The notes: a model not told the origin generated them from the sequence alone. DNA of 64,000 nucleotides from a bacterium (GCA_014360465.1 JACIXQ010000002.1:3719-67718); one strand, 5' to 3'. Shown: positions 6,395 to 63,642, counted from the first letter of the stretch. Numbers and translations are program-made.

Positions 6395-6400
6395 ATTTCT

Positions 6401-9817: not shown

Positions 9818-9819
9818 AT

Positions 9820-11535: not shown

Positions 11536-11537
11536 CC

Positions 11538-12737: not shown

Positions 12738-12739
12738 AA

Positions 12740-17147: not shown

Positions 17148-17206
17148 ATCATTGCTCCGCCCTCATAATTTAGTTAAAAATTATAAAGGAGGCAAGAGAT
17201 TTTCTT

Positions 17207-18265: not shown

Positions 18266-18345
18266 TTTTCAGGCTTTGAGCTTCCTCGCTCTAACAATAT
18301 GGGTTAGGTGAATATCTATATTTTTTTATAAAGCAAAAAGTGTTC

Positions 18346-30816: not shown

Positions 30817-31586
30817 TGTCCGTTTTTCAAGAGGGTGAACTTGCCGTCCTCTACGATACGAAAGGCAGAAGGTACTTGATAACCTTAGAAAGGGGTAAAG
30901 CTTTTCATTATCATAGCGGGGTGGTAGAACACGAGGCGATAATTGGCAAAGAGGAAGGAAGCGTGGTCTTCTCCTCATTAGGTAGCAAGTTGATGGTCTT
31001 CCGCCCATCTTTGGAAGAGTATATCCTCGAAATGCCAAGGGGAGCACAGGTTATGTATGCCAAAGATTGTGCTCTCCTTGGAACATTAACAGATATAAAG
31101 CCGGAGGATAACATAGTTGAAGCCGGGACAGGCTCAGGAGCCCTAACGCTTTTTCTTTGTAGATTAGCAAATAAGGGAACAGTTTACACTTATGAGATTA
31201 GAGAAGACTTTGCAAAGATAGCAAGACAGAACTTAGAGAGATGGGGAGTGAGGAATTTCGTGCTCAAGTTGAAGGACATAAACCAAGGCATTGATGAGGA
31301 AAATGTGGACAAGGTTGTTCTCGATCTTCCCGAACCGTGGTTAGCGATAGAGCAAGTGAAAAAAGCCCTTCGCCCAGGTGGATTCTTCGCTTCATTCCTT
31401 CCAACAGTTCTGCAAATCCATCGGCTGGTTTTGGCAATGAAGGAGACAGGCGGGTTCGCCCAGATAAGGGTTCAAGAGGTGCTCGTGCGTCCCTGGGTTA
31501 TAGAAGAAAGAATAGCGCGACCAGAGCTGAGAATGGTATCTCATACTGGTTTCATCATCGTCGCAAGGCGTCTCTCTGATTCCTGA
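30816..31586 (+). CDS. trmI: tRNA (adenine-N1)-methyltransferase TrmI/Gcd14 family
   Basis: 256 aa. SAM-binding motif VEAGTGSGALTLFL, a post-I acidic residue, and the DLPEPW motif of the TrmI family. Confidence 0.75.
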   Translation: MSVFQEGELAVLYDTKGRRYLITLERGKAFHYHSGVVEHEAIIGKEEGSVVFSSLGSKLMVFRPSLEEYILEMPRGAQVMYAKDCALLGTLTDIKPEDNIVEAGTGSGALTLFLCRLANKGTVYTYEIREDFAKIARQNLERWGVRNFVLKLKDINQGIDEENVDKVVLDLPEPWLAIEQVKKALRPGGFFASFLPTVLQIHRLVLAMKETGGFAQIRVQEVLVRPWVIEERIARPELRMVSHTGFIIVARRLSDS

Positions 31587-44750: not shown

Positions 44751-44831
44751 ACCTTAAGAAAATGCTACTTGCGAACCAAACATAGTGTCCCTACAATTTG
44801 GAAAGGTAGTTTTAGAAAGGAGGTCCTTTAA

Positions 44832-46238: not shown

Positions 46239-46257
46239 ATTTGAGGAGCGTGAGTTT

Positions 46258-47529: not shown

Positions 47530-48545
47530 CTGAAAAAGAAAGATATGAGAAGATAGACCTTCCTTTCTACAGGGAGGAAGTTCGCCCATTTCTTCCCGAA
47601 AAAATACTTGATTTCCACACCCACATATGGACAAAGGACCATTGGATTGAAATCCCCTGGGAAAAGGATTTGCCAGGTAGAAAATATATGGTCGTGGAAG
47701 AGGAGAACAAAGTGGAAGACCTATTAAAAGATGGCGAAATGATTTTCCCAGGGCTTGAATACAACGCTGTCTGCTTCAGCTTCCCCTCCCCTTCAATAGA
47801 CCTCAAGAAGACCAACGCTTATGTTGCTGAAGCTTGTAAAGAAAGGAAGAATCTTTTTCCACTGCTTCTTATCGGCAAGGATACCACGCCAGAGGATGAA
47901 ATCATAGAAGCTGTGGAGAAGCTTGGTTTCAAGGGGTTCAAGGTGCTTACTCCTTGGTATGGGGACGATTATGGTAGTATAACCGTTAAGGATATGATTG
48001 GACCCAGGGAAATGGAAATTGCCGACGAATACAATCTGGTTGTTTTGCTCCATGTTCCAAGAGCTGATAGGTTGGCTGACCCTGAAGTGCAGAGGGATGT
48101 TATGGAATATGCGACAAAATATCCCAATGCGAAGCTGGTCCTTGCCCATTGTGGTCGTTGCTACCTTCCAGAGCAGATTCTCAAAGCGATGAGGTTACTC
48201 CGTGAGCTTGAGAATATCTACCTTGATACATCTATGGTTATGGAGTCTCAGGTATTCCAAATAATTCTGGAAAATCTCAATCCAAGAAGGTTGCTATTTG
48301 GCACGGATTTGCCCATCGCAAGGATGAGAGGACGTCGTGTCTATGTTATGAACCATTGGGTTGATATCGTTCTTGAGGGATATCCCGAGAGCGCCTATAG
48401 GGTTTCCCTTAAAGGTATAAGCGCCGTATTTATGGTCTGGGAAATCGTTCTTGCCCTAAAAAGAGCGGCTGCAGCTGTGGGTCTTGATAAGGAAAAATTC
48501 CAACAAATATTCTACGAGAACGGAATGAACCTGCTAAGGAAATGA
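47526..48545 (+). CDS. Amidohydrolase-2 family metal-dependent hydrolase (TIM barrel)
   Basis: 339 aa. ILDFHTHIW HxH motif near the N-terminus, with later His/Asp ligands (LAHCG, GTDLP). TTG start overlaps the upstream stop. Confidence 0.65.
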   Translation: MTEKERYEKIDLPFYREEVRPFLPEKILDFHTHIWTKDHWIEIPWEKDLPGRKYMVVEEENKVEDLLKDGEMIFPGLEYNAVCFSFPSPSIDLKKTNAYVAEACKERKNLFPLLLIGKDTTPEDEIIEAVEKLGFKGFKVLTPWYGDDYGSITVKDMIGPREMEIADEYNLVVLLHVPRADRLADPEVQRDVMEYATKYPNAKLVLAHCGRCYLPEQILKAMRLLRELENIYLDTSMVMESQVFQIILENLNPRRLLFGTDLPIARMRGRRVYVMNHWVDIVLEGYPESAYRVSLKGISAVFMVWEIVLALKRAAAAVGLDKEKFQQIFYENGMNLLRK

Positions 48546-49861
48546 AAAGATTCCGCTTGGGTGTAGATGTCGGGACAACGAGGGTAAAATCCGCGGTTGT
48601 AGATGAAAATGGTAATATAGTCAGTTTCGCATCCTATCAGATAAGACTCTATATTGAAGGAAATAGGATTGAAATTGACCCCGAGGAACTATGGAGGGCT
48701 GTAGTCGCAGTCATCAAGCAAACAACCTCCAGCGACTTCATAAAAGAAAACCTCATTGGACTTAGCCTGGCAACACAGGGAGGCACACTAATCCTCCTTG
48801 ATGAGAAAAACAATCCCATCAGACGAGCGATAACCTGGATGGACACTAGAGCAAAAGAGGAAAATGAAGAATTGCTGGAAAATTACGGAGCTGAATTCTT
48901 CTACAAGATAACTGGCTGGCTTCCTTCCCAAGCCTGCCTTCCCCTCTCACAGCTTCTCTGGCTTCGTAAAAAAGAAACGGATACTTTCAGAAAGATTGCC
49001 AAATGCCACTTCGTTGACTCCTACCTCCTTTACAGGCTTACTAAAAACGAATGCACAGACTGGACAAACGCAGCAATAACCATGCTATCCAACATCAGAG
49101 AGAAAAAGTGGGATGAAAGACTTTTAAAGATAGTTGGTATCAGCGAGGAGCAGTTGCCTTTGATAAAACCTCCTGGTACCCCTATATCTTCCCTCAGCGA
49201 GACCGCTTCCACAGAACTTGGCTTGCCTCGTGACACGCTCGTCTTTAGCGGAGGGCACGACCAGTATTGCTCAGCCCTTGGAGCTGGAATAGAGAGAGCA
49301 GGAGAAGTCCTACTATCGGCGGGAACAGCTTGGGTTGTCCTTGCAATAACCGATAAGCCCTACTTCAGCTCAACTTACGAATTTTACCCCGGACCACATC
49401 TCAGAGAAAATCTCTGGGGTGCCCTAACCTCCATCCCCTATGGTGGAGCCTCCTACGATTGGTTCTTGAAAAATATCCTGATGAACAAAATTTCCTATGA
49501 GGAAGCGGATGAATTAATAAAGAAAGCGGAAGGAGAAACACCGATTTTCAAGCCATTCCTATCCCAAAATGAAAGCAAAGCGGTTTTCTCTAATTTAGCC
49601 ATCAACCATACTACCGGTCATCTTCTCCGGGCAATTATGGAGGGAATAGCCCAGGAAGTTAAAAGGAAAATTCAGATTATGATTCAGGAGGGCATAGAGA
49701 TAAGGAGCTTGAAGATGGTGGGCGGAGGGGCAAGGAGCTCTGTTTGGCAATCCATCGTCTCCCAAACTCTTCGCCTCCCTGTTTCTATCCCGCCTAACCT
49801 TGAAACGGCTTGTCTCGGTGCCGCCTTGCTCGTCAATCTTAAAAAGGGTGATGAGATATGA
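48542..49861 (+). CDS. FGGY-family carbohydrate kinase (xylulokinase-like)
   Basis: 439 aa. N-terminal LGVDVGTTRVKSAVVDENG, GGTLILLD, and a C-terminal GGGARS motif. Confidence 0.8.
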   Translation: MKRFRLGVDVGTTRVKSAVVDENGNIVSFASYQIRLYIEGNRIEIDPEELWRAVVAVIKQTTSSDFIKENLIGLSLATQGGTLILLDEKNNPIRRAITWMDTRAKEENEELLENYGAEFFYKITGWLPSQACLPLSQLLWLRKKETDTFRKIAKCHFVDSYLLYRLTKNECTDWTNAAITMLSNIREKKWDERLLKIVGISEEQLPLIKPPGTPISSLSETASTELGLPRDTLVFSGGHDQYCSALGAGIERAGEVLLSAGTAWVVLAITDKPYFSSTYEFYPGPHLRENLWGALTSIPYGGASYDWFLKNILMNKISYEEADELIKKAEGETPIFKPFLSQNESKAVFSNLAINHTTGHLLRAIMEGIAQEVKRKIQIMIQEGIEIRSLKMVGGGARSSVWQSIVSQTLRLPVSIPPNLETACLGAALLVNLKKGDEI

Positions 49862-52791
49862 AATATTTCGCTAATTTTCTGCTCTTTATGTTTATTTTCT
49901 TCTCATTCAACGCAGTGCGAGGTGGTGATATGCAAACCTACAAATTAGGAAATTACCAATGGCATATAGAAGCCGAGAATCCACAGGACTTTTGGATGGA
50001 AGAAGAAGGTGGTCCCGATGGTTCGCCGTCACTCATAGGAAGAGCTTTTCCTAGCAAAGAAGGAAGATGGGTTTCTCAGGCAATAGATGTTGAAGAGAAA
50101 AGTGCCTATATGTTTTCAGCCCTTATTAAGTCGGAGCTCAACAGCGCGCAGGGAAGGTTGGAGCTTCTTTTCCTTGACGAAGTGGGTAATCAGAAGGCAA
50201 TTTTCACAAGCAAGACCATATTCCTTCATCACAACTGGTCCAGATATAAGGTTGTAGGAATCGCCCCCGAGGGAACGAAGAAAGCCATCCTCAGACTCGC
50301 CGTTCTGGGAACAGAGATGCAAAGCAGCGGGCAGATAAGAATGTCCCAGCCAAGCTTCGGAAAAAGCGTTCTGCTAAAGGCAAGCTTCACATCCCGGGGA
50401 AACATCATCATCCTTCCAAATAAGCCAATCCTCAAAATATCGCTTGAAGGATTTGCTCCTGAGAAAACATCAAAACTATCTCTTCAGGTTCAGGATTTCT
50501 TCGGACAATCAGTTTATCAAAAGGAAATAAACCTGAAAGGTAATAGCTACAGCTTGGAGCTTCCTCAGTTTGAGTCGGGCTATTATACACTTTTCCTAAA
50601 AGCCGAAGCAGATGGATTACTTACAAACGAAGAGGAGGTTTCCTTCGGTGTCATAACCCCGCTTCCCAAGGATTTCAATCCCAAGGAATCACCGATCTGT
50701 CTTGATGCTGGTATGAGCTGGTCCTATGCTCCAGATGAAGAAAGGCTTGACCTTGCCTGCTACCTCTGTGAGATCGCAGGAATAGGTCTTCTCCGCGACC
50801 GGCTCTGGTGGGGAGAGGTGGAAAAGGAGGAAGGAAAATTCCAGTGGGGACGCTACCTTCAATCAGCCAAAGCCCAGGAACGCCATAAGATAACCGTTTA
50901 CCAAATATTTCACGATTGCCCCAACTGGGCGAGCGTAACCCTACAAAATGGTGGAAAAGCTTCCAATCTTCCTCCCCGTGACTCCATCTATGTTTATAGA
51001 ATGGTCAACCGATTGGTGAAGGATTTAGGCAAGCAAGTTAGATACTTTGAGGTCTGGAACGAACCAAACATCGGCTTCTTCAATGGACGTCCTGAGGATT
51101 ACGCCGCCATTCTCAAAGCCGCTTACTTGGGAGCAAAGGATGCCGATCCCCTCTTTGGCATCCTGATAGGCTCAGCAGCGGGGACTCCAGGGGAGTTCTA
51201 TGAGAGGGTCTATGAAAACGATGTGGGAGGTTACTTCGACATATGCAATCAACATTGGTATGGCTCGCCTGAGGAACTCTTCAACTTCATCCCCAATGAA
51301 GTCCTCTCCCAGCTTCGTCGCTTCGGTCTTGACAAAAAACCTATTTGGATTACGGAAATGGGAATGAGAGCCTATCCATCAGAGAATGGAGATTTCAAGC
51401 CAGTAGAAAGACAACAAGCCTCCTATCTCGTGCGTGCTTACGCATCCGCCTTCGCTAACGGTATCTCCCGCTTCTTCTACTTCTATCTCTGCGAATTCTT
51501 AGAAGGTAGCGTCTCCTTATGGGGAATCGTTCGCTCAGACCTGACGCCAAAACCAACCTATATCGCCCTTGCCAACCTCATCCGTCAGTTAGGAGAAGCC
51601 AAATGCATCGGCTGGAAAAAAGTAGACGATGTATACCTTGTCGCTTTCAAAAGAAAAAACGGCGAAAACCTTCTTATAATTTGGGGAAAGGAAGGAGAAA
51701 AGTTAACACTTACAGCAAAAGGACCAGTTGTGGATATAATGGGGAGGATTACACAGAAAGGCGAAGCTCGCTCCCATATGCTTCAGCTCAACATCTCCTC
51801 TATGCCAATCTATGTGCGTGGCTTGAGCGAGAGGGATATTCAAAACCTCAAGCTTACTCCTCCTCTTCCATCCTCGGATTGGAAACCTGCTCCCGACCAA
51901 GAAATTGATAAAAAAAGAGTCTGGCTTCAGCTTGAGGTCAACCCCGATGAGCCACGCACGGGAGAGGAAAACGAGAAATGGGGAGCCTTCATTGAACCCG
52001 ATAAGCCTTTCAAGGTAACCGCCTGGGTTAACAATTATTCAGATTCCCCTACTACTGTCTCCCTTACCTGTCTACCTGACGAAATGTTCATACTACAAGG
52101 CGAATCCACAGCAAAATTGGAAGTAGCTCCTTGGCAGAGGGCTCGCTATGACTTCATACTCATCGGGGAAAACATCGTGCAAGGAGAGAAGATGGGCGTC
52201 AGCGTTATCCTTGAGACTAAACATCATAAGGAAAAAGGTAGGGTCTACCTTCAGTCACGCTCCTCAAACATCAGAGCCAAAAAAGAAAAAATCATTTGGG
52301 AGGGAGAAGGCGAACTAATAAAAAACCACTCTACAACAACAGAGCTTTCGTTTGAGAAGGACGAGAATGTAAAATTTGGCGACAAACCCTCTCTTAAGAT
52401 AGAAGCCCTTATCAAAAGTCCCGGAGATGCCTGGGTCTTCCCCCAAATCCACCTACCTGCTGACCTTGACCTGAGCGAATTCAAAGGAATTGAGATATGG
52501 AGCTATGTAGGAGAAAACGAGGAGAAAAACCTCAATCTTCAGCTTCAATTAGTTGAGGAGGATGGAGGAACCTATATTCTTCCCATTCTTCGCTCATTTA
52601 GGGAAGCAGGATGGCGAAGAGATATTGCCCTTCTTAGCTCTGCCCAACCAACTTCTTGGGGTCCTGACCCCGATGGAAAACTTGAACTTTCAAAGGTTCG
52701 CACCATTCTCCTCGGCTGGGGCGGCTACTCTGGTAAAGTCGGTGAAAAGGTCGTCTTTTATCTCGGAAAGGTCTCGTCCATAGACTGGTAG
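49858..52791 (+). CDS. Large secreted clan GH-A (GH39/GH5-like) glycoside hydrolase with N-terminal CBM-like and C-terminal Ig/CBM-like domains (putative)
   Basis: 977 aa. Signal peptide. Acid/base YFEVWNEPNIGFFNG, nucleophile WITEMGM, and CBM4/9-like segments at both ends. Confidence 0.55.
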   Translation: MKYFANFLLFMFIFFSFNAVRGGDMQTYKLGNYQWHIEAENPQDFWMEEEGGPDGSPSLIGRAFPSKEGRWVSQAIDVEEKSAYMFSALIKSELNSAQGRLELLFLDEVGNQKAIFTSKTIFLHHNWSRYKVVGIAPEGTKKAILRLAVLGTEMQSSGQIRMSQPSFGKSVLLKASFTSRGNIIILPNKPILKISLEGFAPEKTSKLSLQVQDFFGQSVYQKEINLKGNSYSLELPQFESGYYTLFLKAEADGLLTNEEEVSFGVITPLPKDFNPKESPICLDAGMSWSYAPDEERLDLACYLCEIAGIGLLRDRLWWGEVEKEEGKFQWGRYLQSAKAQERHKITVYQIFHDCPNWASVTLQNGGKASNLPPRDSIYVYRMVNRLVKDLGKQVRYFEVWNEPNIGFFNGRPEDYAAILKAAYLGAKDADPLFGILIGSAAGTPGEFYERVYENDVGGYFDICNQHWYGSPEELFNFIPNEVLSQLRRFGLDKKPIWITEMGMRAYPSENGDFKPVERQQASYLVRAYASAFANGISRFFYFYLCEFLEGSVSLWGIVRSDLTPKPTYIALANLIRQLGEAKCIGWKKVDDVYLVAFKRKNGENLLIIWGKEGEKLTLTAKGPVVDIMGRITQKGEARSHMLQLNISSMPIYVRGLSERDIQNLKLTPPLPSSDWKPAPDQEIDKKRVWLQLEVNPDEPRTGEENEKWGAFIEPDKPFKVTAWVNNYSDSPTTVSLTCLPDEMFILQGESTAKLEVAPWQRARYDFILIGENIVQGEKMGVSVILETKHHKEKGRVYLQSRSSNIRAKKEKIIWEGEGELIKNHSTTTELSFEKDENVKFGDKPSLKIEALIKSPGDAWVFPQIHLPADLDLSEFKGIEIWSYVGENEEKNLNLQLQLVEEDGGTYILPILRSFREAGWRRDIALLSSAQPTSWGPDPDGKLELSKVRTILLGWGGYSGKVGEKVVFYLGKVSSIDW

Positions 52792-52794
52792 AAC

Positions 52795-53970
52795 CTAAAT
52801 GCTTCCCGTCTCTGCTATTTTTCTCTTCAATTCAAGATAATATAGAAAGTTATCCAGGGGCACTTCGGGAGGCACAGTGTGGTCTACAGTTGGTATATAG
52901 CCTCCAAATTCCAACATTGGGATAATTTTTCTCCTCAATTCTTCCTCTATCGCCTTTTTATCCTTTGCCAACTCCCGTTTATCTATGCCTCCCATAAAGG
53001 CGAGGTCTTTCCCGTATTCTTTTCTCAATTTCACCGGGTCCATTTCCGCAGCGGATTCCAAAGGCCAGTGGCAATTTATTCCTGCCTCAATTATCAATGG
53101 AATCAGGGGCTCCGTATTACCATCACTGTCAAGCTCTATGACCTTGACATTATGTTTTCTCAAATATTCTGAGATAGCTTTGTGCCTCGGCTGGAAAAAT
53201 TCTTTATAAATCTTAGGGGAAATTAAAGGACCATTTTTGAAGGCGAAATCCTCATTGAAGGTAAAAGCATCTATTTCGAGCTCGGTCAATACCTTCTTGG
53301 TAGTCTCTATGAAGAACTCCACCATCCAATCCAATATCTCGTGGACAAGCTCGGGCTGGTCGTAAAAGGCATAGGATAGGTTCTCCGTGCCCATCATCTG
53401 TCGGAGGTTCCAGTACAACCCGGCAAATCCACAGTTCTCCGTCAAATATAAAGGATAGTCCCGGCTCATCCATTTCCTCTTCAATTCCTCCCAGTTTTTG
53501 GGGTAACGGGAAGGGTCTTTAGGGTCAAAACGTTTCTTGAACTCAAGAAAATCTTCCCTTTTTTTGACGAAGAAATCCATATAGGTATCCATACAGATGC
53601 GAGTTCCCCTCACGGTTCCCTCCTTGAGAGCCCTGTGTTTCTGCCCCCATCTATCTATGAATACAACATATCTCTCATCCTCCTCAAGGATTTGGTCAAA
53701 GCCAGGTATGGGACCCATATCCAAGGGGATGAAATCCCTCCTATCCAGCTGAGCGAACTTAGGCTCCCCTCTGAACCAATCCCCTGCGAGTTCATCCTCT
53801 CTGAGCCCTTCCTGAAGCCATCTTTCATAGGTCTGCCCCCAAATCCCGAGTTCATAATAGGGATAGCGGTCAACTGGCTTGAAAGAGATGGTGGCTAAAA
53901 ACCTCTCTCTTTGATTCACGGACAGCACCTCCACGGAAAGAAGATTTATATAAGATAGGATAAAGGTCAC
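52795..53970 (-). CDS. URO-D-like (MtaA/CmuA family) protein, paralog 2
   Basis: 391 aa. LDSDGNTEPLIPLIIEAGINC and the C-terminal YYLELKRK block are shared with paralogs 1 and 3. Confidence 0.65.
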   Translation of the reverse strand: MTFILSYINLLSVEVLSVNQRERFLATISFKPVDRYPYYELGIWGQTYERWLQEGLREDELAGDWFRGEPKFAQLDRRDFIPLDMGPIPGFDQILEEDERYVVFIDRWGQKHRALKEGTVRGTRICMDTYMDFFVKKREDFLEFKKRFDPKDPSRYPKNWEELKRKWMSRDYPLYLTENCGFAGLYWNLRQMMGTENLSYAFYDQPELVHEILDWMVEFFIETTKKVLTELEIDAFTFNEDFAFKNGPLISPKIYKEFFQPRHKAISEYLRKHNVKVIELDSDGNTEPLIPLIIEAGINCHWPLESAAEMDPVKLRKEYGKDLAFMGGIDKRELAKDKKAIEEELRRKIIPMLEFGGYIPTVDHTVPPEVPLDNFLYYLELKRKIAETGSI

Positions 53971-54310: not shown

Positions 54311-55879
54311 ATGAATCTTAAAAGAAAGCGATTTCTCTCAAAAGACGATATCGTCTGGCTTATGGCAGTTTACCTTGTTTTTTCCTTCACATTCTCTTTG
54401 CCTTACATTGTAGGAGCCTTACTCACACCGCCAGGTGAAAAATACCTCGGGCTAATTCGTATTTCCGATGATTTACTTATCTATCTCTCCTGGATCCAAC
54501 AAATTAGAGATGGAAACATATTTTTCGTTAATCTTTATAACTCTGAGCCACAGCGATACCCTTTCTTCAGTTTCTTCCCCCTAATCTTGGGTTGGCTAGC
54601 AAGAATGTTGCATATCTCCTCTCTTAAAGCGTTATTTCTTTCCCGCTATCTTTTCTCATTTGTTTTTATTCTCCTAATGTATTCTTTTCTTTCCTTCATA
54701 TTTAATGACAAGAAAGTGGTGAAAACAGGTTTACTTATCGTCCTTTTTTCCTCGGGAATAGGTTGGTTGACAGGTGGTTATTCCCCAATGAGGGGGATAG
54801 AGAATTCCGTTGACTTATGGCAACCCGAGGCTACTGTGTTCTTCACTTCCTATGTCAATCCATTGCATCTATTTTCTTTGATATTCATCGTTGGATTTTT
54901 CTATTCCCTTTTGAGGTTGAAAGGAATTAAAGGCGGGATAATTGCTGGTCTTTGCCTTTCAGTCCTCGCAAACGCACATAGCTACGATTTAATAATCCTT
55001 GCCTCAATCTGGGGGATATATATTTTCATCCTATGGGTTTGGAAGGAGAGCTTCCCCCTCAATGAGGTGAGGAATGCATTGATTGCTTTGCTTGTGGCTT
55101 CCCCTGCTATGATATACCAATTACTAATCCTCTTCAAAGACCCCATTTTCTCTCAAAGAGCAAAGGCTCCTCTACCTTCCCCTTCGTTTTACTGGTATTT
55201 AACAGGTATGGGCTTTTTGATTCCCCTTGCAGTTTGGGGAATAATTAAAAAAGTGAAAGAGAAAAGAGCTGATGAGATACTTGTTTTCCTTGCCACCTGG
55301 GCGATAGCTGGTTTTTTCCTACCTTACCTCCCTTTTCCATTTCAGTACAAGCTTTTTATGGGAACACAAATTCCCCTTGCGATACTTTCAACAATGGCGA
55401 TAACATCTTTGAAAGTCAAGGGGGATGTTCTTCCCTTCTTGCTTCCCATCCTGTTCCTTTCCAACCTTGTCATAATCGGCAACAGGATTTACACAATCGC
55501 ATTAAATGGACCGGGCAATCTTTCTTATGAAGAATTAGAAAGCTTCCGATGGCTGAAGGAAAATACTCCTCGCAGTTCTACAATCCTCGCTTTTCCCGAT
55601 TTTGCCATATACATACCAGCCTTCACAGGGCGGAGAGTGTTCGCAGGACATTATATTGAAACTGTAGACTTCCGGCGAAAAGCGATGGAAGTTATCAGAT
55701 TTTATCTACAGGATGAAAATGAGAAAAATAAGGATTTTCTCAAAAATAACAATATTGAATATGTATATTACGGAAGATATGAACGATTTCTATTTCCGCA
55801 ATTTCTCAAGCATAACCACTCCTTCTTAGAAATCGTCTTTCATCAGGGAAATGTACGTATTTTCAAAGTGAAGAAGTGA
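54311..55879 (+). CDS. Polytopic membrane protein, putative GT-C-like glycosyltransferase, paralog A
   Basis: Start placed at ATG 54311 (MNLKRKRF...), parallel to the paralog B N-terminus. The listed 54263 is a TTG with no RBS. About 12 TM helices, first-loop Asp pair (ISDDLLIYLSWIQQIRDG), and a C-terminal soluble domain. Roughly 45% identical to 57220-58800 by eye. Confidence 0.5.
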   Translation: MNLKRKRFLSKDDIVWLMAVYLVFSFTFSLPYIVGALLTPPGEKYLGLIRISDDLLIYLSWIQQIRDGNIFFVNLYNSEPQRYPFFSFFPLILGWLARMLHISSLKALFLSRYLFSFVFILLMYSFLSFIFNDKKVVKTGLLIVLFSSGIGWLTGGYSPMRGIENSVDLWQPEATVFFTSYVNPLHLFSLIFIVGFFYSLLRLKGIKGGIIAGLCLSVLANAHSYDLIILASIWGIYIFILWVWKESFPLNEVRNALIALLVASPAMIYQLLILFKDPIFSQRAKAPLPSPSFYWYLTGMGFLIPLAVWGIIKKVKEKRADEILVFLATWAIAGFFLPYLPFPFQYKLFMGTQIPLAILSTMAITSLKVKGDVLPFLLPILFLSNLVIIGNRIYTIALNGPGNLSYEELESFRWLKENTPRSSTILAFPDFAIYIPAFTGRRVFAGHYIETVDFRRKAMEVIRFYLQDENEKNKDFLKNNNIEYVYYGRYERFLFPQFLKHNHSFLEIVFHQGNVRIFKVKK

Positions 55880-56097
55880 ATACTTCTCTTGTGGTGTCTT
55901 TCCTCAAAAACAAATCGCTTTGAAAGCCTTGTTTACTCGCTTCCCAAAATCTCAATCCGTTCGGTAACATCATTTACTATTTGCTGAAATGTAACTTGGT
56001 GTAGAAAGGAAACTATTTTTCAGTAAATTATTGTTAAGGGAGAGCGTAGAGTTGAATACTTTTAAAGAAGAAATTATAATGAATAAAAAAGACCAAA

Positions 56098-57216
56098 ATG
56101 CTTAGCTTATTGAGGCAGAGTTTAAAAGAACTTGATTATTACTTTGTTATTCCCCTTTTCCTACTAATTGGCGTAGGGTTATTGTTTATTTACAGCGCCA
56201 CAAAGGAAGCCTCCTCAAATACATATTCAATAAGCCTGTTGATAAGACAATCAGTATGGGCCATCATCTCACTTGCTTTTTTCTTTCTGATAACTATCAC
56301 AGATTACCGGCAGCTTCCACGCTTCTCCAACCTCATTTATTTTTTGATGTCATTCCTTCTGATTTTGGTTCTTTTGCTGGGCAAAAAGACAAGTGGCGCG
56401 CAAAGATGGTTCCAGTTAGGTCCTATAACCTTCCAACCCTCGGAATTGGCAAAAGTTATGCTTCTCATCACCATCTCCTCTTTTTGGGCAAAAAATCATT
56501 CTAAGGCAGGGGATTTAGAGACGATTTTTCGCTCTTTTATCCATATAAGCATCCCTACTCTGCTCGTCTTTTTTCAACCTGACTTGGGCACTTCCCTCAC
56601 CTTCGTGGTAATCTGGTTAGCTTCACTTTTGATAGTGGGTGTTAAAGTAAAGCATCTTATAGCCATTGGGGTAGCTGGTATCATCCTGGTGATTATGGCT
56701 TGGCATTTTGATATCATTCGCCCTTATCAAAAGAAACGGATAGAGGTCTTTCTCAATCCCAATGCAGACCCTTATGGAGCCGGCTATCATATCATCCAGT
56801 CAAGAATTGCTATAGGTTCAGGAGAAGTTTGGGGAAAAGGCTTATTCAAAGGAACACAAAATAGGCTGAATTACATACCAGCTCAACATACGGATTTCAT
56901 TTTCACTGTTGTAGGGGAAGAGCTCGGATTTGTAGGCTGTTTATTCGTGATTCTACTTTATTTTCTGATGATTTGGCGTTGTTTTTTAACATCGCTTGAA
57001 ACTGAAGACCTACTTGGGCAGATGATTTGCGCACTCGTAGGTGTCCTGCTTACTTTTCACTCATTCGTCAACATAGGGATGACTCTCGGCATAATGCCTG
57101 CCGTTGGTATTCCCCTACCCTTCTTAAGCTATGGAGGTAGCAATCTTCTTTCCTTCTGCATAATGGCTGGATTGGTGCAGAGCATCCATCAAAGGAGGAA
57201 GAAATTGTCTTTCTAA
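56098..57216 (+). CDS. SEDS-family peptidoglycan glycosyltransferase homolog (RodA/FtsW/SpoVE-like)
   Basis: 372 aa with 10 TM helices. FQPSELAKVMLLI (compare FtsW QPSEFAK), GSGEVWGKG, and IPAQHTDFIFTVVGEELGFVGC (compare PEAHTDFIFA..GEELG). Confidence 0.8.
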   Translation: MLSLLRQSLKELDYYFVIPLFLLIGVGLLFIYSATKEASSNTYSISLLIRQSVWAIISLAFFFLITITDYRQLPRFSNLIYFLMSFLLILVLLLGKKTSGAQRWFQLGPITFQPSELAKVMLLITISSFWAKNHSKAGDLETIFRSFIHISIPTLLVFFQPDLGTSLTFVVIWLASLLIVGVKVKHLIAIGVAGIILVIMAWHFDIIRPYQKKRIEVFLNPNADPYGAGYHIIQSRIAIGSGEVWGKGLFKGTQNRLNYIPAQHTDFIFTVVGEELGFVGCLFVILLYFLMIWRCFLTSLETEDLLGQMICALVGVLLTFHSFVNIGMTLGIMPAVGIPLPFLSYGGSNLLSFCIMAGLVQSIHQRRKKLSF

Positions 57217-57219
57217 GCG

Positions 57220-58800
57220 ATGAAATCGGATAGAATCCAAAGTGATGAAGTTCTCTGGGTTATAGCTGTTGGACTTGTTGCATGTTTACTCTTCTCCTTG
57301 CCATATATAGTAGGCGCCTTTATGTGCCCGCCTAACGCAAAATTCCTCGGTCTTCTTAGACTCAAAGACGACCTTGCAGTTTATCTATCTTGGATAGAAC
57401 AGGTTCGGCAAGGACATATCTTCTTCGTTAACCTCTTCACAAACATCCCTCAGAAACATCCATTCTTCAATATCTTCGCCCTTTTGATGGGAGCAGTTAG
57501 CAAGCTTTCAAATATCTCCCCTGTTAAATTGCTCTTCATTTCCCGTTATATCCTCGCTTTTATATTAGTTTTCACACTGTATTATTTAATTTCCTTCATT
57601 TTCCCAGATAAAGTAACGAGGAAAGTAGCCTTGTTGTTGGTCCTTTTCTCCTCTGGGCTGGGATGGTTGACGGGTGGATATGCTCCTCAAAGGGGATTTG
57701 AAAACTCGGTTGACCTCTGGCAACCCGAGTCAACGGTCTTCTTCATCCTTTATGTTAACCCCTTGTTCACCTTCGCCCTAATTCTTATGCTCTGCTTCTT
57801 TCTCGCCCTTCTTAAATTGAGAGGTTGGAAAAGCGGAGTTATCGCAGGTATATGCTTACTCGTTTTGGCAAATGTCCACACTTATGATATCTTAATAGTC
57901 GGTCTTGTCTGGATATTCTTTATCTTTGCACTCTCTTTGAAAGAAAGGAAAATACAATGGAAACTGATACTACCCGCTTTAATTGCTTCTCTCATCGCAA
58001 TTCCTGCAATATACTATCAAATCTATCTTTTGAAAAATGAACCATTATTCGCAAAAAGAGCAGAAGTCCCTACGCTTTCGCCTTCCTTTCGCTGGTATCT
58101 TACCGGAATGGGTTTGCTCATCCCCTTAGCCTTATGGGGAGCAACAAGAAGGGTAAAGGAAAGAAAAAAAGACGACCAGCTCCTTTTCCTTCTTTGCTGG
58201 ATAGTTGCGGGTTTCATCCTACCCTATCTTCCTTTTTCATTTCAGCGAAAATTGTTTATGGGTACACAGATACCTCTTGCTCTACTGTCAACTTTTGCTA
58301 TTTGTCCCGAGTTTATCAAAGAAAAAAGAAATATCCTGCCCTTTCTCCTTCCCTTCTTGTTCCTCTCCAACATCGTTGTTCTGGGAACGGACATTTATTC
58401 CCTGATTACCAATCAACCCCTATATCCCCAACCTAATTATATAAGTGATAATGAAAGCGAAGCCCTGGAATGGTTGAAAAATTGGACTACTCCAGAGGAA
58501 ACAATATTGGCAATCCCCGATTTCGCCTGCTATATACCCGCCTTATGTGGCAGGAGAGTTTACGCTGGGCACTGGGGTGAAACTCCCGATTATGAGAAAA
58601 AGTATAAAGAGGTTTTAAGGTTTTATAAAGCTACCGACCCATATATAAAAAAGACCTTCCTTAAAGAAAACAACATAAAGTTTGTTTACTATGGCAGCTA
58701 TGAACGGTTTTTTGCACCGCTGTTTCCCCAGCTTGAAAATCCTTTTCTCCAAAAGATCTACCAAAATGAAGAGGTCATTATCTGGAGGGTTTTAGATTGA
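57220..58800 (+). CDS. Polytopic membrane protein, putative GT-C-like glycosyltransferase, paralog B
   Basis: 526 aa. Collinear with paralog A (LPYIVGAFMCPPNAKFLGLLRLKDDLAVYLSWIEQVRQGHIFFVNLF versus LPYIVGALLTPPGEKYLGLIRISDDLLIYLSWIQQIRDGNIFFVNLY). Confidence 0.5.
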   Translation: MKSDRIQSDEVLWVIAVGLVACLLFSLPYIVGAFMCPPNAKFLGLLRLKDDLAVYLSWIEQVRQGHIFFVNLFTNIPQKHPFFNIFALLMGAVSKLSNISPVKLLFISRYILAFILVFTLYYLISFIFPDKVTRKVALLLVLFSSGLGWLTGGYAPQRGFENSVDLWQPESTVFFILYVNPLFTFALILMLCFFLALLKLRGWKSGVIAGICLLVLANVHTYDILIVGLVWIFFIFALSLKERKIQWKLILPALIASLIAIPAIYYQIYLLKNEPLFAKRAEVPTLSPSFRWYLTGMGLLIPLALWGATRRVKERKKDDQLLFLLCWIVAGFILPYLPFSFQRKLFMGTQIPLALLSTFAICPEFIKEKRNILPFLLPFLFLSNIVVLGTDIYSLITNQPLYPQPNYISDNESEALEWLKNWTTPEETILAIPDFACYIPALCGRRVYAGHWGETPDYEKKYKEVLRFYKATDPYIKKTFLKENNIKFVYYGSYERFFAPLFPQLENPFLQKIYQNEEVIIWRVLD

Positions 58801-61049
58801 GGAAGAACGCCCCTTATTTTTTACTTATACTCCTTTTGGTTCTCATTTTCTTCTACAAAGTTTTTCAGGGAAATGTTTTACTTCCTGCCGACCTTAGCCT
58901 TCGCCTTCAACCCTGGAGGAGCTATTCATTTTCTCTCTTTCCTGAATTCAGAAAAGTATACAATCCCCTTTTGGATGTCATCCTCTACTTTTATCCCTGG
59001 CGAGTTCTTTTGGAAAAAAGCCTGAAAGAAGGCTACATTCCCCTCTGGAGCAGTTACAACTTCTCAGGTCAGCCATTTCTTGCGAATATGGCTTCAGCTT
59101 GCCTTTACCCCTTCAACTGGTTATTGCTCTTCATCCAAGCGCACTGGTTGATGACGATAAGCATCATCTTTCATTTCCTCATCACGGGAATTTTTGCCTT
59201 TCTGTTTTTCTCTTCATTAGGACTTAAAAGAAGCTCCGCACTTCTGGGAGCAATAATCTGGACATTTTCTGGACCAATGGTCGCATGGGCTGAGTATCAA
59301 ACACCTATCGCATCAATGAGCTGGTTCCCTCTTATGCTTTTTTGCTTTAGAACCTTCATCATTAAAAGAAAATATATCTATGCCCTTTTAGCCGGTTTTC
59401 CCCTCGCTTTGAGCATCCTTGGTGGTCATACCCAGTTTGCCCTCTATGGCTGGCTAGCCTTTACTTTTTTCGCTATCTTCCAATCAATCATTGAGAAAAA
59501 CTTTAAAGAAGGTTTCATAGGTCTGTTTATATCTTTATCCACTGGATTTGTTCTATCATTACCACAGCTTTTACCTTCATTTGAACTTGCGCAAAGAAGC
59601 CACCGCTCGCTTGGTTCTTCCTTCTCTGACCTTTCATCAACCGCGATGCCTTTAGGTCATCTATGGACATTCCTTGTCCCAAATTTTTTCGGCAATCCCG
59701 TAGACTATGATTACAGAGGCGCCTTCAATTATGTGGAACTTTGTGGATACTTTGGGCTTTTGCCTTTCTTCCTTGCACCCTTTGCTTTAACAAGGAAAGA
59801 AGGAAAATTTTTCCTTTTCCTCGCTCTTGTCGCGCTCCTTTTCTCTTTAAAGACGCCTCTTCTTAGAATCCTTACCTTTCTGCCCATTTTCTCCTATCTT
59901 GCCGCTCCAGCAAGGTCGCTTTTCATCGTCTCTTTCTCCTTCGCTGCCTTGGCAAGTTTTGGATTTGATAGGTTGAAAGAAATACCTCCAAAGGTTCCCC
60001 TATATATAGCCTGCATATTACTCTTGCTTTTGGGATTGGGCATTTCTCTAAACGCCGAAACCATCGGCTTCCCATCATCTTTTGCCCTTATAAGTTTTTT
60101 GATTCTCACGACTCTATCTTCCATTTTCTTAAAACTGAAAAAAGTCTTTCCCGTTGTTCTGCTTTCTATAATTGATATGTTCGCTTTTGGCATCAGGTTC
60201 AATCCAGCTATATCGCCCGCTATGCTTTTCCCTTCCACTCCCGCCACGGAAAGGCTTTCCTCCCTTCCATCAAAAGAATATCGCTTCCTTGCTCTTCCCG
60301 GCGTAAAAGACCCACTTGACACGCTCCTGCCTAATTGCAATATCCTATTGGGTTTGAGAGAAATTCAAGGTGGTGATTCTCTCTATCCCTTGCGTGTTCT
60401 CCGATTTGCCCAACTCATCAATAAGAATCAGAAGAGAAGCAATGCTCTTTATATAACCAATCCCTTTTCTTTCCTTCTGGACATCGCCGGCATTAAATAT
60501 ATTTTCTCCCGTAAGCCCTTGAAAAACTCAAAATTTTCTGCTGTTTATGAAGGCGTTTTCTATCTATACGAAAACAAATCAGCTTTCCCACGCTTTTATC
60601 TATCAGCTGAAACGATAAATTTTCAGAAAGAACGGTCAGCTTTAAAAGCTTTGCCAATTTTAAATAAAAGAAAGGATGCGCTAATATTGGAAGGAGGAAT
60701 AGCCCTTCATAGAGGCATGCCTTCTTACTCGGTTAACATCGAAAAAGAGAGAGAGGGTTTTGTGAGGTTAAGGGTTAAATGCGACAGGGAATCATATCTT
60801 TTGATGAACGAAACATTTTACCCTGGCTGGAAAGCCTTCGTTGATGGAAAGGAGGAAAAAATCCTACCGGCAAATTACTTGTTCCAATCCGTTCATCTTG
60901 CTCCTGGAGAACACGAGGTTGTCTTCGCCTATCGCCCAACTTCCTTTAAAATAGGGCTTTATCTCGCTTTACTGGGGATAAGTTCAATAGTAGCTTTCTT
61001 GTACATAGAAGGCAAAAGGAGAATTCGCTCAATGGCAAAGCGGGCATAG
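58797..61049 (+). CDS. Large polytopic membrane protein, YfhO-family-like (putative)
   Basis: 750 aa with at least 14 hydrophobic helices. N-terminal pattern PADLSLRLQPW...YIPLWSSYNFSGQPFLAN resembles YfhO-family proteins. TTG start overlaps the upstream stop. Confidence 0.45.
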   Translation: MRKNAPYFLLILLLVLIFFYKVFQGNVLLPADLSLRLQPWRSYSFSLFPEFRKVYNPLLDVILYFYPWRVLLEKSLKEGYIPLWSSYNFSGQPFLANMASACLYPFNWLLLFIQAHWLMTISIIFHFLITGIFAFLFFSSLGLKRSSALLGAIIWTFSGPMVAWAEYQTPIASMSWFPLMLFCFRTFIIKRKYIYALLAGFPLALSILGGHTQFALYGWLAFTFFAIFQSIIEKNFKEGFIGLFISLSTGFVLSLPQLLPSFELAQRSHRSLGSSFSDLSSTAMPLGHLWTFLVPNFFGNPVDYDYRGAFNYVELCGYFGLLPFFLAPFALTRKEGKFFLFLALVALLFSLKTPLLRILTFLPIFSYLAAPARSLFIVSFSFAALASFGFDRLKEIPPKVPLYIACILLLLLGLGISLNAETIGFPSSFALISFLILTTLSSIFLKLKKVFPVVLLSIIDMFAFGIRFNPAISPAMLFPSTPATERLSSLPSKEYRFLALPGVKDPLDTLLPNCNILLGLREIQGGDSLYPLRVLRFAQLINKNQKRSNALYITNPFSFLLDIAGIKYIFSRKPLKNSKFSAVYEGVFYLYENKSAFPRFYLSAETINFQKERSALKALPILNKRKDALILEGGIALHRGMPSYSVNIEKEREGFVRLRVKCDRESYLLMNETFYPGWKAFVDGKEEKILPANYLFQSVHLAPGEHEVVFAYRPTSFKIGLYLALLGISSIVAFLYIEGKRRIRSMAKRA

Positions 61050-62416
61050 CTGAAAAGAGTTAAAGGCGAGGGGGAATGAAGGATTGTCCGAAAGATGTAG
61101 CGAGGGCGAAGGTAAAACCTAAATATAGCCTTCCTCCTCCACCTCAAGAGTTCCTCCCTTGAAATATAGAATGTCCTAGCGATTGGTATAGAATGGTCGT
61201 AACCTTGAAAATCGCCCTCTATTAGATTCTTTTCCCTAACGATGTCATAAAGAACAGTTCCCGGAAAAGGAACAGCGAGATGGAATTCGGCATAATCGGA
61301 GTCAAGCTCGAGAGCAAATTTGATAGTCTCAAAAACATCTATCTCCCTTTCCCAAGGCAGACCGAACAAATAAAAAGCATAGGATTTGATTTTGTATTTT
61401 TTGCACAATTCAACTGCTCTTTTCGCATCCTCTTTTGTTATTGCCTTGCCCATAAGGTTAAGAATCCTCTGGGAACCACTTTCAATTCCCAATGATATAA
61501 GCCAGCATCCAGAAGCTTTCATCCATCTCAATCTCTCCTCATCCAGGGTATCTACCCGGCTATTACACACCCACTTTATGTTGAGGTTCCGCCTCAAGAT
61601 CTCCTTACAGATTTCAATAACCCATTCTTTATTCCAGGTAAAGGTATCGGCGCGGAAGAAAAAGTTTCTTATATTGAACTTGTTGATACATTCCTCTATC
61701 TCATCAACGATGTTTTTGGGAGAACGAAGCCTTAGCTTTCTGCCAGATAATTTGCCAGCAAGACAGAAAACACACTGTCCTGGACAACCTCTATTAGTCT
61801 GTATCGTCGTCTGCGGTTCATTGGTGTCCGGTCTTTTATAGAGGGAATTGTCAAGAAGATGGCGGGCTGGAAAAGGAAGAGAATCAAGGTCCTCAATGAA
61901 TTTTCTATCCGGATTCCTTATTATCCTTCCATTAGAGCGGAAAGTTATCCCCTCTATTTTGTCAAGCTGATAACCTTGTGCCAATTCCTTCACCGTTTCT
62001 TCCACCTCACCCCGTAGCGCTATGTCCAGATAAGGATGCTTTTTTAATGCCTCCTCATCAAGAACTGTAATATGTCCTCCTTTTGCAGCTGTTATTATTG
62101 AGGGATTGAGTTTTTTAGCAATTTCACAGGCTTTCATATCAAGTTCAAATGTAGGGGTTGTTACGCTCACAATCAGGATGTCCGGGGAGAAAATCTCCAA
62201 GTCCCTCTCTAAAGCACTCCAACCTTTACCCTCGACTGGGTAATCTTTAATCCGGCATTCCACCCCTTCCTGCTCAAGAACCGCTGCTATGTAAGCAAGG
62301 TCAATCGGTGGTCTGGGCGCAGTAGCTGTAAGTCCCTTGACCGGGACTTGACATCTATCTTCTCTTATGTATAAACCAGAGGGTGGATTTATCAGTAAAG
62401 CCCTTTTTAACCTCAA
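60959..62416 (-). CDS. B12-binding-domain radical SAM enzyme
   Basis: 485 aa. N-terminal cobalamin-binding Rossmann-like domain (RLKRALLINPP, DILIVSVTTP). Radical SAM CxxxCxxC cluster motif in RGCPGQCVFCLAG. Confidence 0.75.
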   Translation of the reverse strand: MRLKRALLINPPSGLYIREDRCQVPVKGLTATAPRPPIDLAYIAAVLEQEGVECRIKDYPVEGKGWSALERDLEIFSPDILIVSVTTPTFELDMKACEIAKKLNPSIITAAKGGHITVLDEEALKKHPYLDIALRGEVEETVKELAQGYQLDKIEGITFRSNGRIIRNPDRKFIEDLDSLPFPARHLLDNSLYKRPDTNEPQTTIQTNRGCPGQCVFCLAGKLSGRKLRLRSPKNIVDEIEECINKFNIRNFFFRADTFTWNKEWVIEICKEILRRNLNIKWVCNSRVDTLDEERLRWMKASGCWLISLGIESGSQRILNLMGKAITKEDAKRAVELCKKYKIKSYAFYLFGLPWEREIDVFETIKFALELDSDYAEFHLAVPFPGTVLYDIVREKNLIEGDFQGYDHSIPIARTFYISREELLRWRRKAIFRFYLRPRYIFRTILHSPSPLTLFSYARFAIERILLLPSMYKKATIELIPSKAR

Positions 62417-62418
62417 TT

Positions 62419-63642
62419 TTATCCCTTCTCCCTTACCTCCTTAACGGTTTGTAGAAGGGCGAGGATATTTTCCACAGGGACATTAGCCTGTATGTTATGT
62501 ATTTGACAAAAAACGAACCCACCACCCTCGGCAAATATCGCGATTCTCTCTCTTATATGTTCACTGACTTCCTTAGGAGAAGCAAATGGTAAAATTCTCT
62601 GGGTGTCGCAACCTCCCCCCCAAAACACTATATCCTTCCCGAATTCCTTCTTCAATTTCTCCGGTTCCATATTGCGGGCAGATGTCTGGACGGGATTGAG
62701 GATATCAACTCCAGCCTCTATCAGATAGGGAATCAGCTCATAAATTCCTCCACAGCTATGAAGGAAGACATATACATTTGGTGCTTTTTTATGGACAAAT
62801 TCGTAAATCCTTTTATGGGCAGGGAAAATGAGTTCCTTATAAAGGCGAGGAGAGAGCATCGGACCGTTCTGTGTTCCCAAATCATCTCCCATCTGGATAA
62901 TCTGGATATAATCACCCACAGCATCCAGATAAAGCTCAAGATTTTTTAAATGACCTTCAACCATCTTCTCTATTAAAGCTTCGACAAGGGGCTTGTTGGA
63001 AAGCAAGGCTGACATAAAATTCTCCCATCCCATAAGCGTTTGCCCACTTTCAAGGATATTACCACCAAATGAACCCATAATTGCGTAGTCCGTATTCTCA
63101 TAAAGATATTTTGCTTCCTTTCTTAAAGCAGTGAGCGTTTCCTCGCTCATCACGCCCATCTCCCATTTTTCTATGTCCTTAACCGATTCAACATTTGCCA
63201 AGGGATGGTAAACGCCATCAAAGTAGAAGCCATCTGCGGGCATCCGAGCTGTGACCACGCCGCCTTCAACGATGTAGCGACTCCCGTCCCTCTCTTCTTC
63301 TATGTTGTAATTAGCCGGTATCAAAGTCATAGTTCTTTCTTCATCGGGCAATGGATAGGGTTTCCAGCCCCAAATATGGTCTGCCATTACTTTCTCAGTG
63401 TCAAGAGCGATAACATCTATCCCAAACATTCTCCTTATATCCTCGTCTACCCAGGCAAGTTGTTGCCCCACATCATATACCCTGATGCCGTTAAGAGGTA
63501 GACCAAGAGCTTTGCGCAACTTAACATAGGCTATAGCCATTATCCCGGTTGACCGCATCCCTCCAAGGTCCCAGGGCAATATGTCCGGTTCTTTATGTTT
63601 CAAAGCTGTTAAAACCCTTTCTCTCGGTGTCACTCTTATCAC
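62419..63642 (-). CDS. URO-D-like (MtaA/CmuA family) protein, paralog 3
   Basis: 407 aa. LHSCGGIYELIPYLIEAGVDILNP matches the URO-D HSCG-type motif, and the barrel is collinear with paralogs 1 and 2. Confidence 0.65.
   Translation of the reverse strand: MIRVTPRERVLTALKHKEPDILPWDLGGMRSTGIMAIAYVKLRKALGLPLNGIRVYDVGQQLAWVDEDIRRMFGIDVIALDTEKVMADHIWGWKPYPLPDEERTMTLIPANYNIEEERDGSRYIVEGGVVTARMPADGFYFDGVYHPLANVESVKDIEKWEMGVMSEETLTALRKEAKYLYENTDYAIMGSFGGNILESGQTLMGWENFMSALLSNKPLVEALIEKMVEGHLKNLELYLDAVGDYIQIIQMGDDLGTQNGPMLSPRLYKELIFPAHKRIYEFVHKKAPNVYVFLHSCGGIYELIPYLIEAGVDILNPVQTSARNMEPEKLKKEFGKDIVFWGGGCDTQRILPFASPKEVSEHIRERIAIFAEGGGFVFCQIHNIQANVPVENILALLQTVKEVREKG

Follow-up and report, generated by a model that had tools for sequence, protein, structure and literature searches.

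What function should be assigned to a SEDS glycosyltransferase gene that is embedded among genes for other membrane proteins, with no gene for a class B penicillin-binding protein (bPBP) beside it? This question is raised by a 64-kb stretch of DNA from a metagenome-assembled bacterial contig (GCA_014360465.1, JACIXQ010000002.1:3719-67718; NCBI locus tags for the contig: H5T87_00820 to 00830), referred to here as the window, and specifically by a block of genes at positions 54311-61049. A preliminary description of this DNA, made from the sequence alone, proposed that the SEDS polymerase might serve a non-canonical envelope glycopolymer pathway or work with novel partners. The four genes that it described are all present on the plus strand, with open reading frames (ORFs) as it had given them:

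Positions 54311-55879, plus strand: par1, membrane protein of 522 amino acids (counted from ATG).
Positions 56098-57216, plus strand: SEDS gene (rodA), 372 amino acids.
Positions 57220-58800, plus strand: par2, membrane protein of 526 amino acids.
Positions 58797-61049, plus strand: YfhO-like gene, 750 amino acids.

We find that the SEDS protein is most likely the ordinary elongation-type peptidoglycan polymerase of this lineage, RodA, as judged from profile scores and alignments, and we consider it reasonably probable that this housekeeping rodA heads an operon with a periplasmic glycosylation module that depends on polyprenyl-phosphate-linked sugars.

The identity of the SEDS protein was established by comparison with curated family models. 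It matches the Pfam family FTSW_RODA_SPOVE over residues 20-368 (E = 2e-100, 336.6 bits against a cutoff of 26.4) and passes the NCBIfam equivalog model for RodA, TIGR02210, with 386.9 bits (cutoff 336.7). Assignments as FtsW (313.6 bits, cutoff 337.5) or SpoVE (248.6 bits, cutoff 448.8) were dropped because both scores fall under the respective cutoffs. The closest solved structures are those of Escherichia coli RodA (8tj3_B, 7e-66) and Thermus thermophilus RodA (6bar, 1e-55), followed by FtsW (6e-41). With these two RodA proteins the window protein shares a length of about 370 residues, a full-length match above the equivalog cutoff, and aligned QP(S/L)ELAK, QPDLG and HTDF motifs; in the alignment with 6bar its own motifs read QPSELAK, QPDLG and HTDF, and the aspartate of the last is D266 in the window protein. 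The positions of T. thermophilus RodA residues E108/K111, D152 and D255, which we take to be the essential residues of that enzyme, are conserved in this alignment. NCBI likewise names the protein RodA, and its nearest homologs beyond its own clade (66-76% identity inside) are RodA proteins from Armatimonadota and Negativicutes, with 43-50% identity. This RodA would be the sole elongation SEDS of the genome.

The absence of a bPBP gene beside the SEDS gene, to which the preliminary description drew attention, holds over a wide range of sequence. A Pfam scan of the 64-kb window identified no bPBP among its ORFs of at least 400 amino acids, and a tblastn search with E. coli PBP2, for which no positive control from this phylum was at hand, found none in the window or in 88 related loci (1.46 Mb). 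However, the premise that a SEDS gene normally adjoins its bPBP gene fails for this phylum. In four of four other Armatimonadota (L081/L082, L083, L090 and L091; L numbers denote individual loci), rodA is a stand-alone gene that is divergent from two M16 peptidase genes and has no bPBP gene within 6-8 kb. In one metagenome-assembled genome of this kind (JBDKSP01, which holds both L090 and L011), rodA resides on a different contig from a block of ArnE/F-like, YfhO-like and par genes of the type considered below. The rodA gene of Bacillus subtilis is likewise not known to adjoin a bPBP gene. The other flank of the M16-paired rodA genes often carries genes for an ABC-2 transporter, a type II dehydroquinase and an M24 peptidase (four loci examined).

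The window rodA is therefore like the rodA genes of other Armatimonadota in having no bPBP gene at its side. It differs from them in that the M16 peptidase synteny does not extend to the window's clade, and from RodA genes elsewhere in that it is the lead gene of a probable operon that also encodes two GT-C enzymes and has neither an mrdAB nor an mreBCD context. Given that the RodA cutoff is passed, that rodA stands alone in four other genomes, and that the glycosyltransferase pair occurs apart from SEDS genes in 77 of 80 loci (see below), a missing bPBP neighbor does not serve as a sign of a non-canonical SEDS. The bPBP partner of the window RodA is most likely encoded elsewhere, as appears usual in Armatimonadota. 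The evidence thus comes close to a standard rodA with its bPBP encoded at another site, which is the outcome that the preliminary description had itself set against its proposal.

If RodA is ordinary, then the more informative proteins at this locus are its neighbors. In an alignment of 525 residues, par1 and par2 share 53% identity and 71% positives (E = 0), and on this basis their paralogy is real, extends over the whole length as had been claimed, and is far beyond chance. The paralogs are not strictly tandem, as they had been called, since rodA sits between them. As single sequences, neither par1 nor par2 has a match in Pfam, in NCBIfam or among PDB sequences. A homolog search nevertheless yielded 127 relatives, and an exhaustive search with a family profile (hereafter the par profile) recovered 8,960 cluster representatives at E < 1e-3, of which 3,732 remain at E < 1e-30.

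An AlphaFold2 model was prepared for par2 (pLDDT 94, pTM 0.93), and the fold of par1 would follow from its identity to par2. All 26 of the Foldseek PDB matches to this model with E values of 1e-3 or lower are GT-C enzymes, each with a probability of 1.0. The top matches are DPY19 (1.4e-9), STT3/AglB/PglB (about 1e-8) and AftA (3e-8), with ALG12 and AftD weaker. A search with the par profile further gave a match to the globular C-terminal domain of AglB-S2 from Archaeoglobus (3vu0, E = 2e-4), along with a weak one to yeast Stt3. These findings support the assignment of par1 and par2 as putative GT-C-fold membrane glycosyltransferases of an uncharacterized family.

Conservation was evaluated in an alignment of 41 par sequences, using par2 numbering. 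D51 is invariant (41 of 41), and 36 of the sequences also have D50; both residues are located between the first transmembrane (TM) helix (residues 8-34) and the next membrane helix. The invariant D51 in this first loop, together with the model matches, bears out the earlier suggestion that the paralogs are GT-C-like. A VDLWQPE motif contributes two further invariant residues, D165 and E170, and a GHWGETP motif contributes three, H451, E454 and T455, while H220, Y222, D223, Q342, R343 and K344 are nearly invariant. From the helices of the model and the positive-inside rule, par2 is predicted to have 11 membrane spans with its N-terminus inside and its C-terminus outside; loops assigned to the cytoplasm have a lysine and arginine density of 0.40, compared with 0.10 for those assigned to the periplasm. 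With this topology, the conserved polar motifs and the C-terminal domain of par2 would lie on the periplasmic side.

All 15 invariant family residues are retained in par1, which carries a tyrosine at the positions of the near-invariant R343 and W452. Because par1 is closer to its apparent orthologs P0013, P0016 (on a 15.7-kb contig) and P0011 (58-61% identity) than to most par2-type proteins (53-56%), its sequence points to a duplication of par2 inside the clade. A gene for a protein of about 534-538 amino acids without a Pfam match occupies the par1 position 5' of the SEDS gene in L084 and L085, and no gene of this kind is present in L003, L086, L087 or L088.

The best structural matches to par2 are the GT66 enzymes STT3/AglB/PglB and the GT98 enzyme DPY19 (E values of 1e-9 to 1e-7, TM-scores of about 0.45-0.56). 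The par proteins have in common with oligosaccharyltransferases (OSTs) the periplasmic C-terminal domain that gives rise to the AglB-S2 profile match and the first-loop aspartate. Unlike OSTs, they carry their own invariant GHWGETP motif, are smaller (about 525 amino acids), have 11 predicted TM helices, and do not match the Pfam STT3 or Dpy19 models. An assignment as an OST was rejected on the basis that WWDYG is missing; the aligned segment in par2 is IPDFA, which varies among family members. The par family is thus OST-like in fold, but is not an OST. Four of the 41 par members reach the Pfam model DUF6541 (PF20176; best E value 8e-10), which describes uncharacterized membrane proteins, and some database homologs carry a precomputed match to it. 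Neither par1 nor par2 matches this model, which is unspecific for par in that some YfhO-family proteins match it as well, and our literature search found nothing on DUF6541.

The 750-amino acid protein at the end of the block can be placed in a known family. It matches Pfam YfhO (PF09586) with 51.8 bits (cutoff 28.5) and is named a 'YfhO family protein' by NCBI, and its orthologs in L007 and L010 also match the N-terminal membrane region of the Pfam model. A search of PDB sequences with a profile of the YfhO-like family gave no match, and no sequence relation between the par and YfhO-like families is detectable (hhalign probability 2.5%). The AlphaFold2 model of the protein (pLDDT 94.3) is matched by Foldseek to AftD (4e-6), to STT3/AglB (3e-5 to 8e-5), to ArnT (7e-4) and also to PglB, and it carries a beta-rich (beta-sandwich) periplasmic domain at about residues 490-712 that is followed by a final C-terminal TM helix. 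Among NCBIfam models, the nearest matches are very weak ones to the streptococcal glycosyltransferases PgfM1/PgfM2. A near-invariant aspartate, D60, is found where the first helix beyond TM1 begins. The GT-C fold of the model and this aspartate uphold the earlier suggestion that this neighbor is a putative glycan transferase, and support its interpretation as a YfhO-family GT-C glycosyltransferase and a new member of a known family.

Are these glycosyltransferases encoded together with rodA in any meaningful way? Only 3 nt lie between rodA and par2, and the last 4 nt of par2 are shared with the YfhO-like gene, in agreement with the gaps of no more than 4 nt that had been reported among the last three genes. 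The par1 gene is set apart from rodA by 218 nt. Its ORF reaches back to a TTG at 54263, but we favor the ATG at 54311 as the start because both the alignment with par2 and the NCBI gene model (P0014) fit it. One sigma-70-like match precedes rodA:

Positions 56052-56080, plus strand: sigma-70-like promoter consensus match (TTGAAT-17-TATAAT), 18 nt 5' of the rodA start codon.

Promoter and terminator scans of this region gave site counts that are not above shuffled expectation. Since the 218-nt gap with its promoter-like site comes after par1, this gene is probably a separate transcription unit and would have a promoter region of its own. From gene order and spacing, we take rodA to be the first gene of a three-gene operon, rodA-par2-yfhO-like, that would be co-transcribed in the clade. 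Rfam and tRNA scans of 54-61 kb for RNA elements gave nothing.

This gene order is preserved among close relatives of the window. The arrangement of rodA, par2 and YfhO-like gene, followed by a convergent gene for a B12-binding radical SAM protein, is complete in the window and in L001, L002, L003, L085, L087 and L088; the contigs of L084 and L086 end early, but agree with the rodA-par2-YfhO order. Throughout the clade contigs, the stop and start codons of these three genes abut or overlap. In contrast, the gene located 5' of the rodA block varies: the window, L084 and L085 have par1 at this place, L003 and L086 have a gene for a CARDB protein, L002 and L087 have one for an AraC/PocR regulator, and L088 has a GH123 gene. 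Because the three-gene block is kept while its surroundings have changed, and with SEDS identities inside the clade that go down to 64% (64-76%), the comparison suggests that rodA-par2-YfhO is a real operon, in one lineage only. This uncultured clade appears to be Armatimonadota-like, judging from where its homologs occur.

A genome-collection scan with the par profile, in which neighbors were identified by tblastn and ORF clustering, returned 80 loci. Those with a phylum label are mostly from Armatimonadota (Chthonomonadales, Fimbriimonadia, Armatimonadaceae), with one from Abditibacteriota and three from Actinomycetota, and about one quarter are labelled only as 'bacterium'. A SEDS gene is near par in only three of the 80 loci (L001-L003, the closest relatives of the window) and is not found within 10 kb in the other 77, and the linkage is thereby confined to the window's clade of about nine contigs. 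The YfhO-like gene adjoins par in 31 of the 80, and the common order is YfhO followed by par; the order par followed by YfhO is found in the window and in L010, and is reversed elsewhere. The four-gene block, whose co-occurrence had been put forward as a check, therefore survives in part: rodA-par2-YfhO is kept in the clade, but the GT-C pair of par and YfhO-like genes occurs phylum-wide without SEDS.

Two further observations may link the members of the GT-C pair to sugar-lipid chemistry or to one another. First, a gene for a 148-amino acid membrane protein that resembles ArnE/F is located directly 5' of the pair, in one or two copies, in about 19 loci. An example with tandem copies is as follows:

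L070, positions 1307-1750 and 1692-2141: tandem ArnE/F-like genes (cluster c2, which comprises L006-L036, L070 and L077).

These proteins match the NCBIfam model for ArnF over positions 4-116 of 120 (1e-12; 45-48 bits against a cutoff of 99) and also match ArnE (1e-6) and, weakly, EamA/TMEM234, all below curated cutoffs. By the names of the NCBIfam models, ArnE/ArnF is the undecaprenyl-phosphate-aminoarabinose flippase, and from these matches the 148-amino acid proteins are probably lipid-linked-sugar flippases of the DMT/SMR type. Second, a single protein of 1,352 amino acids (P0333) combines a YfhO-like N-terminal part of about 780 residues (about 30% identity to the window protein, 2e-30) with a par part (residues 831-1351), and is an apparent natural fusion of the two. 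Because par and YfhO-like genes adjoin in 31 of 80 loci and SEDS genes are near in only three, and because of the P0333 fusion and the ArnE/F-like neighbors, the conserved functional unit is, on this genomic evidence, the GT-C pair with a likely lipid-sugar flippase rather than the SEDS gene.

In some relatives, the par gene has other companions. Among Chthonomonadales-type loci without an adjacent YfhO-like gene (L038-L080, cluster c3), a DUF4432 gene (Pfam 1e-102) is located directly 5' of par in about 15 loci, for example:

L040, positions 8807-9934: DUF4432 gene adjoining par (cluster c3).

What might such a unit do? In multi-component transmembrane glycosylation, a C55-P-sugar produced by a GT-A enzyme is carried across the membrane by a small flippase, and its sugar is then transferred to a wall polymer on the outside by a GT-C enzyme, for example YfhO; YfhO-family enzymes act in this manner on polymers such as lipoteichoic acid (LTA) and wall teichoic acid (WTA) (PMC8035078). 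This logic offers the best reading for the par and YfhO-like proteins because of their fold, their periplasm-facing acidic residues, and the ArnE/F-like neighbors. In the proposed sequence of events, a cytoplasmic enzyme encoded outside the window would load a sugar onto polyprenyl phosphate, a small flippase would bring the lipid-linked sugar to the outer leaflet, and the two GT-C enzymes, acting in sequence or as a complex, would use their periplasm-facing acidic residues to pass the sugar to an extracytoplasmic acceptor. We infer a lipid-linked donor, a periplasmic acceptor and joint action of the two GT-C enzymes by analogy with the known systems. The acceptor would be an envelope glycopolymer or a protein, and the hints diverge on this point: par resembles the protein-modifying GT-C enzymes OST and DPY19, but the characterized YfhO enzymes act on teichoic acids.

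Compared with the CsbB/GtcA/YfhO systems of B. subtilis, Staphylococcus aureus and Listeria and the ArnC/ArnEF/ArnT systems of Gram-negative bacteria, the module has a YfhO-family GT-C enzyme in common, small ArnE/F-like genes, whose products score below the curated cutoffs, precede the YfhO-like gene in related genomes, and its acidic residues are predicted to face the periplasm. Unlike those systems, it pairs two different GT-C enzymes (which are fused in one protein), and no GT-A synthase gene was found nearby. It occurs in Armatimonadota-like hosts and not in Firmicutes, and no flippase gene was found at the loci of the window's clade.

Several points weigh against this interpretation of a housekeeping rodA joined to a glycosylation module. 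No gene for a sugar-activating GT-A enzyme was found near the block, either by Pfam scans of the window, L002 and L003 or from precomputed Pfam matches for the other clade loci, and no ArnE/F-like flippase gene was found in the window (where tblastn gave chance-level matches only) or in L001-L003; the donor pathway is for these reasons a conjecture in the clade. A GT-A gene might be located at another site in the genome, which is common. The ArnE/F-like assignment itself sits below the NCBIfam and Pfam cutoffs, and P0333 is a single database entry that might be an assembly or gene-calling artefact. On the side of RodA, clade members score 382-387 bits on TIGR02210 (orthologs 382-383) compared with 416-424 bits for other Armatimonadota RodA proteins, all above the cutoff, and this difference of about 35 bits could mean some functional divergence. 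The sequence covered is 64 kb, and a second, canonical rodA with a bPBP gene might be located elsewhere in the genome. Moreover, the roughly nine contigs with 64-76% SEDS identity and varied flanks argue for a selected linkage, such that 'ordinary rodA' may understate a functional coupling.

The last of these points leads to the strongest competing explanation, in which the GT-C pair decorates nascent peptidoglycan, an attached polymer, or proteins of the elongasome or envelope in step with the lipid II polymerase RodA. The coupled codons of rodA-par2-YfhO, which are retained in all clade contigs despite four upstream contexts, are as expected if co-transcription reflects a functional coupling to cell-wall growth, which we consider possible. 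The activity of YfhO-family enzymes on LTA and WTA (PMC8035078) is also in line with it, as is a preprint (10.1101/2024.05.05.592596) that reports the glycosylation of Ser/Thr-rich regions of streptococcal membrane-associated proteins, given the weak match of the window YfhO-like protein to PgfM1/PgfM2. However, beyond the clade no SEDS gene is located within 10 kb of the pair (77 of 80 loci), and elsewhere it resides in a housekeeping neighborhood with formyltransferase-like and corrinoid-protein genes. A shared operon is also no evidence of a shared substrate, and we regard this explanation as unlikely, although it fares better than the others that we weighed.

Alternatively, an ancestral rearrangement might have put rodA beside the GT-C pair by chance, with the arrangement then kept by kinship and carrying no functional meaning. 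The linkage is indeed limited to one clade that also shares the radical SAM, URO-D and DUF72 genes downstream, and the varying order of par and YfhO between lineages indicates that the locus has been rearranged. Against this stand the upstream flank, replaced at least four times beside a three-gene block that has kept its integrity and the coupling of its stop and start codons, and the SEDS identity of down to 64%, which indicates that the common ancestry is not very recent. Neutral synteny thus seems improbable to us.

We give about the same low credence to a bolder possibility, that RodA is mechanistically tied to both GT-C enzymes, either because lipid II, nascent glycan strands or a wall-anchored polymer would be glycosylated by the pair during extrusion by RodA, or because a GT-C enzyme would substitute as a partner or regulator of the SEDS protein. 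In the clade, rodA sits at the head of the operon, 5' of the GT-C genes, where other Armatimonadota have ArnE/F-like genes, and this replacement would fit a rewiring between RodA and the GT-C enzymes. If this were true, a diderm phylum would possess a novel, co-synthetic form of wall modification carried out by the pair. Our literature search found nothing that links SEDS genes with GT-C operons.

A specialized SEDS protein that polymerizes a glycopolymer other than peptidoglycan, that uses a GT-C enzyme as a substitute for its bPBP, or that takes the flippase-like role of ArnE/F could draw on that same replacement, on the somewhat lower RodA scores of the clade and on the lack of a bPBP gene in the window and all related loci, but it is very improbable given that the curated RodA cutoff is passed, that the residues taken to be essential are conserved, that rodA without an adjacent bPBP gene is the norm in the phylum, that most genomes have the GT-C pair without a linked SEDS gene, and that we know of no SEDS protein that polymerizes anything but lipid II.

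The preferred interpretation thus remains that of a housekeeping rodA at the head of a glycosylation operon, and the following features of the surrounding DNA were recorded alongside it:

Positions 60959-62416, minus strand: B12-binding radical SAM gene (Pfam B12-binding and Radical_SAM; HpnJ/BchE-like, below equivalog cutoffs).
Positions 62419-63642, minus strand: URO-D/MtaA-like methyltransferase-family gene (Pfam URO-D 1e-24), downstream of the radical SAM gene.
Positions 52795-53970, minus strand: gene listed with the B12-related genes near the block.

The radical SAM gene converges on the YfhO-like gene, covers the last 91 nt of that gene, and is found in the same place in L001, L002, L003, L085, L087 and L088. 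L085 and L088 carry the URO-D gene at the corresponding place, where L001 has a member of the same ORF cluster. B12-related genes adjoin the GT-C pair in two forms, namely the radical SAM gene in the clade and, in other Armatimonadota, genes for a corrinoid protein and a RACo-type activase; the latter two are located just 5' of the ArnE/F-like, YfhO-like and par genes in L007, L009, L017-L019, L035 and L077. This neighborhood may be coincidental synteny or may be linked to methylation chemistry.

A gene for a DUF6785/DUF6784 membrane protein is located at positions 33432-35345 (minus strand) of the window, 20 kb from the rodA block. In several clade relatives (L003:4430-6373, L084, L085, L086), such a gene is found just 5' of the rodA block, accompanied by genes for an N-methyl/DUF1559 pilin-like protein and a CARDB protein of about 800 amino acids. 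Farther away, the plus strand carries a row of genes at positions 9820-15523 that encode a HerA/DUF87 ATPase (9820-11535), a calcineurin-like phosphoesterase (11538-12737) and an SMC/SbcC-like ATPase (12740-15523), a cluster of the HerA-Mre11-Rad50 type that is better known from archaea and thermophiles. Genes for carbohydrate use are dense in the window (4103-8554, 15510-20865, 31555-33459 and 42777-52791) and include GH129-like, GH42-like, GHL10, melibiase/NPCBM and GH39 genes, genes for a carbohydrate-binding module (CBM) protein, an arabinose-isomerase-like protein and an FGGY kinase, and a gene for a GH-like protein of 977 amino acids. This density fits the saccharolytic lifestyle that is typical of Armatimonadota.

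RodA is already well known, and the findings presented here add little on peptidoglycan polymerases; an unlinked rodA would not surprise a cell-wall specialist. The new element is the par family, a large and unnamed group of putative GT-C enzymes with thousands of cluster representatives, an OST-like periplasmic domain and its own set of motifs, which may be of interest to glycobiologists. Its pairing with a YfhO-family protein and ArnE/F-type genes would represent a variant of known glycosylation systems. To our knowledge, envelope glycosylation in Armatimonadota is essentially unstudied, and our literature search found nothing specific on the cell walls of this phylum. If the GT-C pair acts on wall components, then the rodA-linked operon would be a natural place to seek a coupling between the synthesis of the wall and its decoration.

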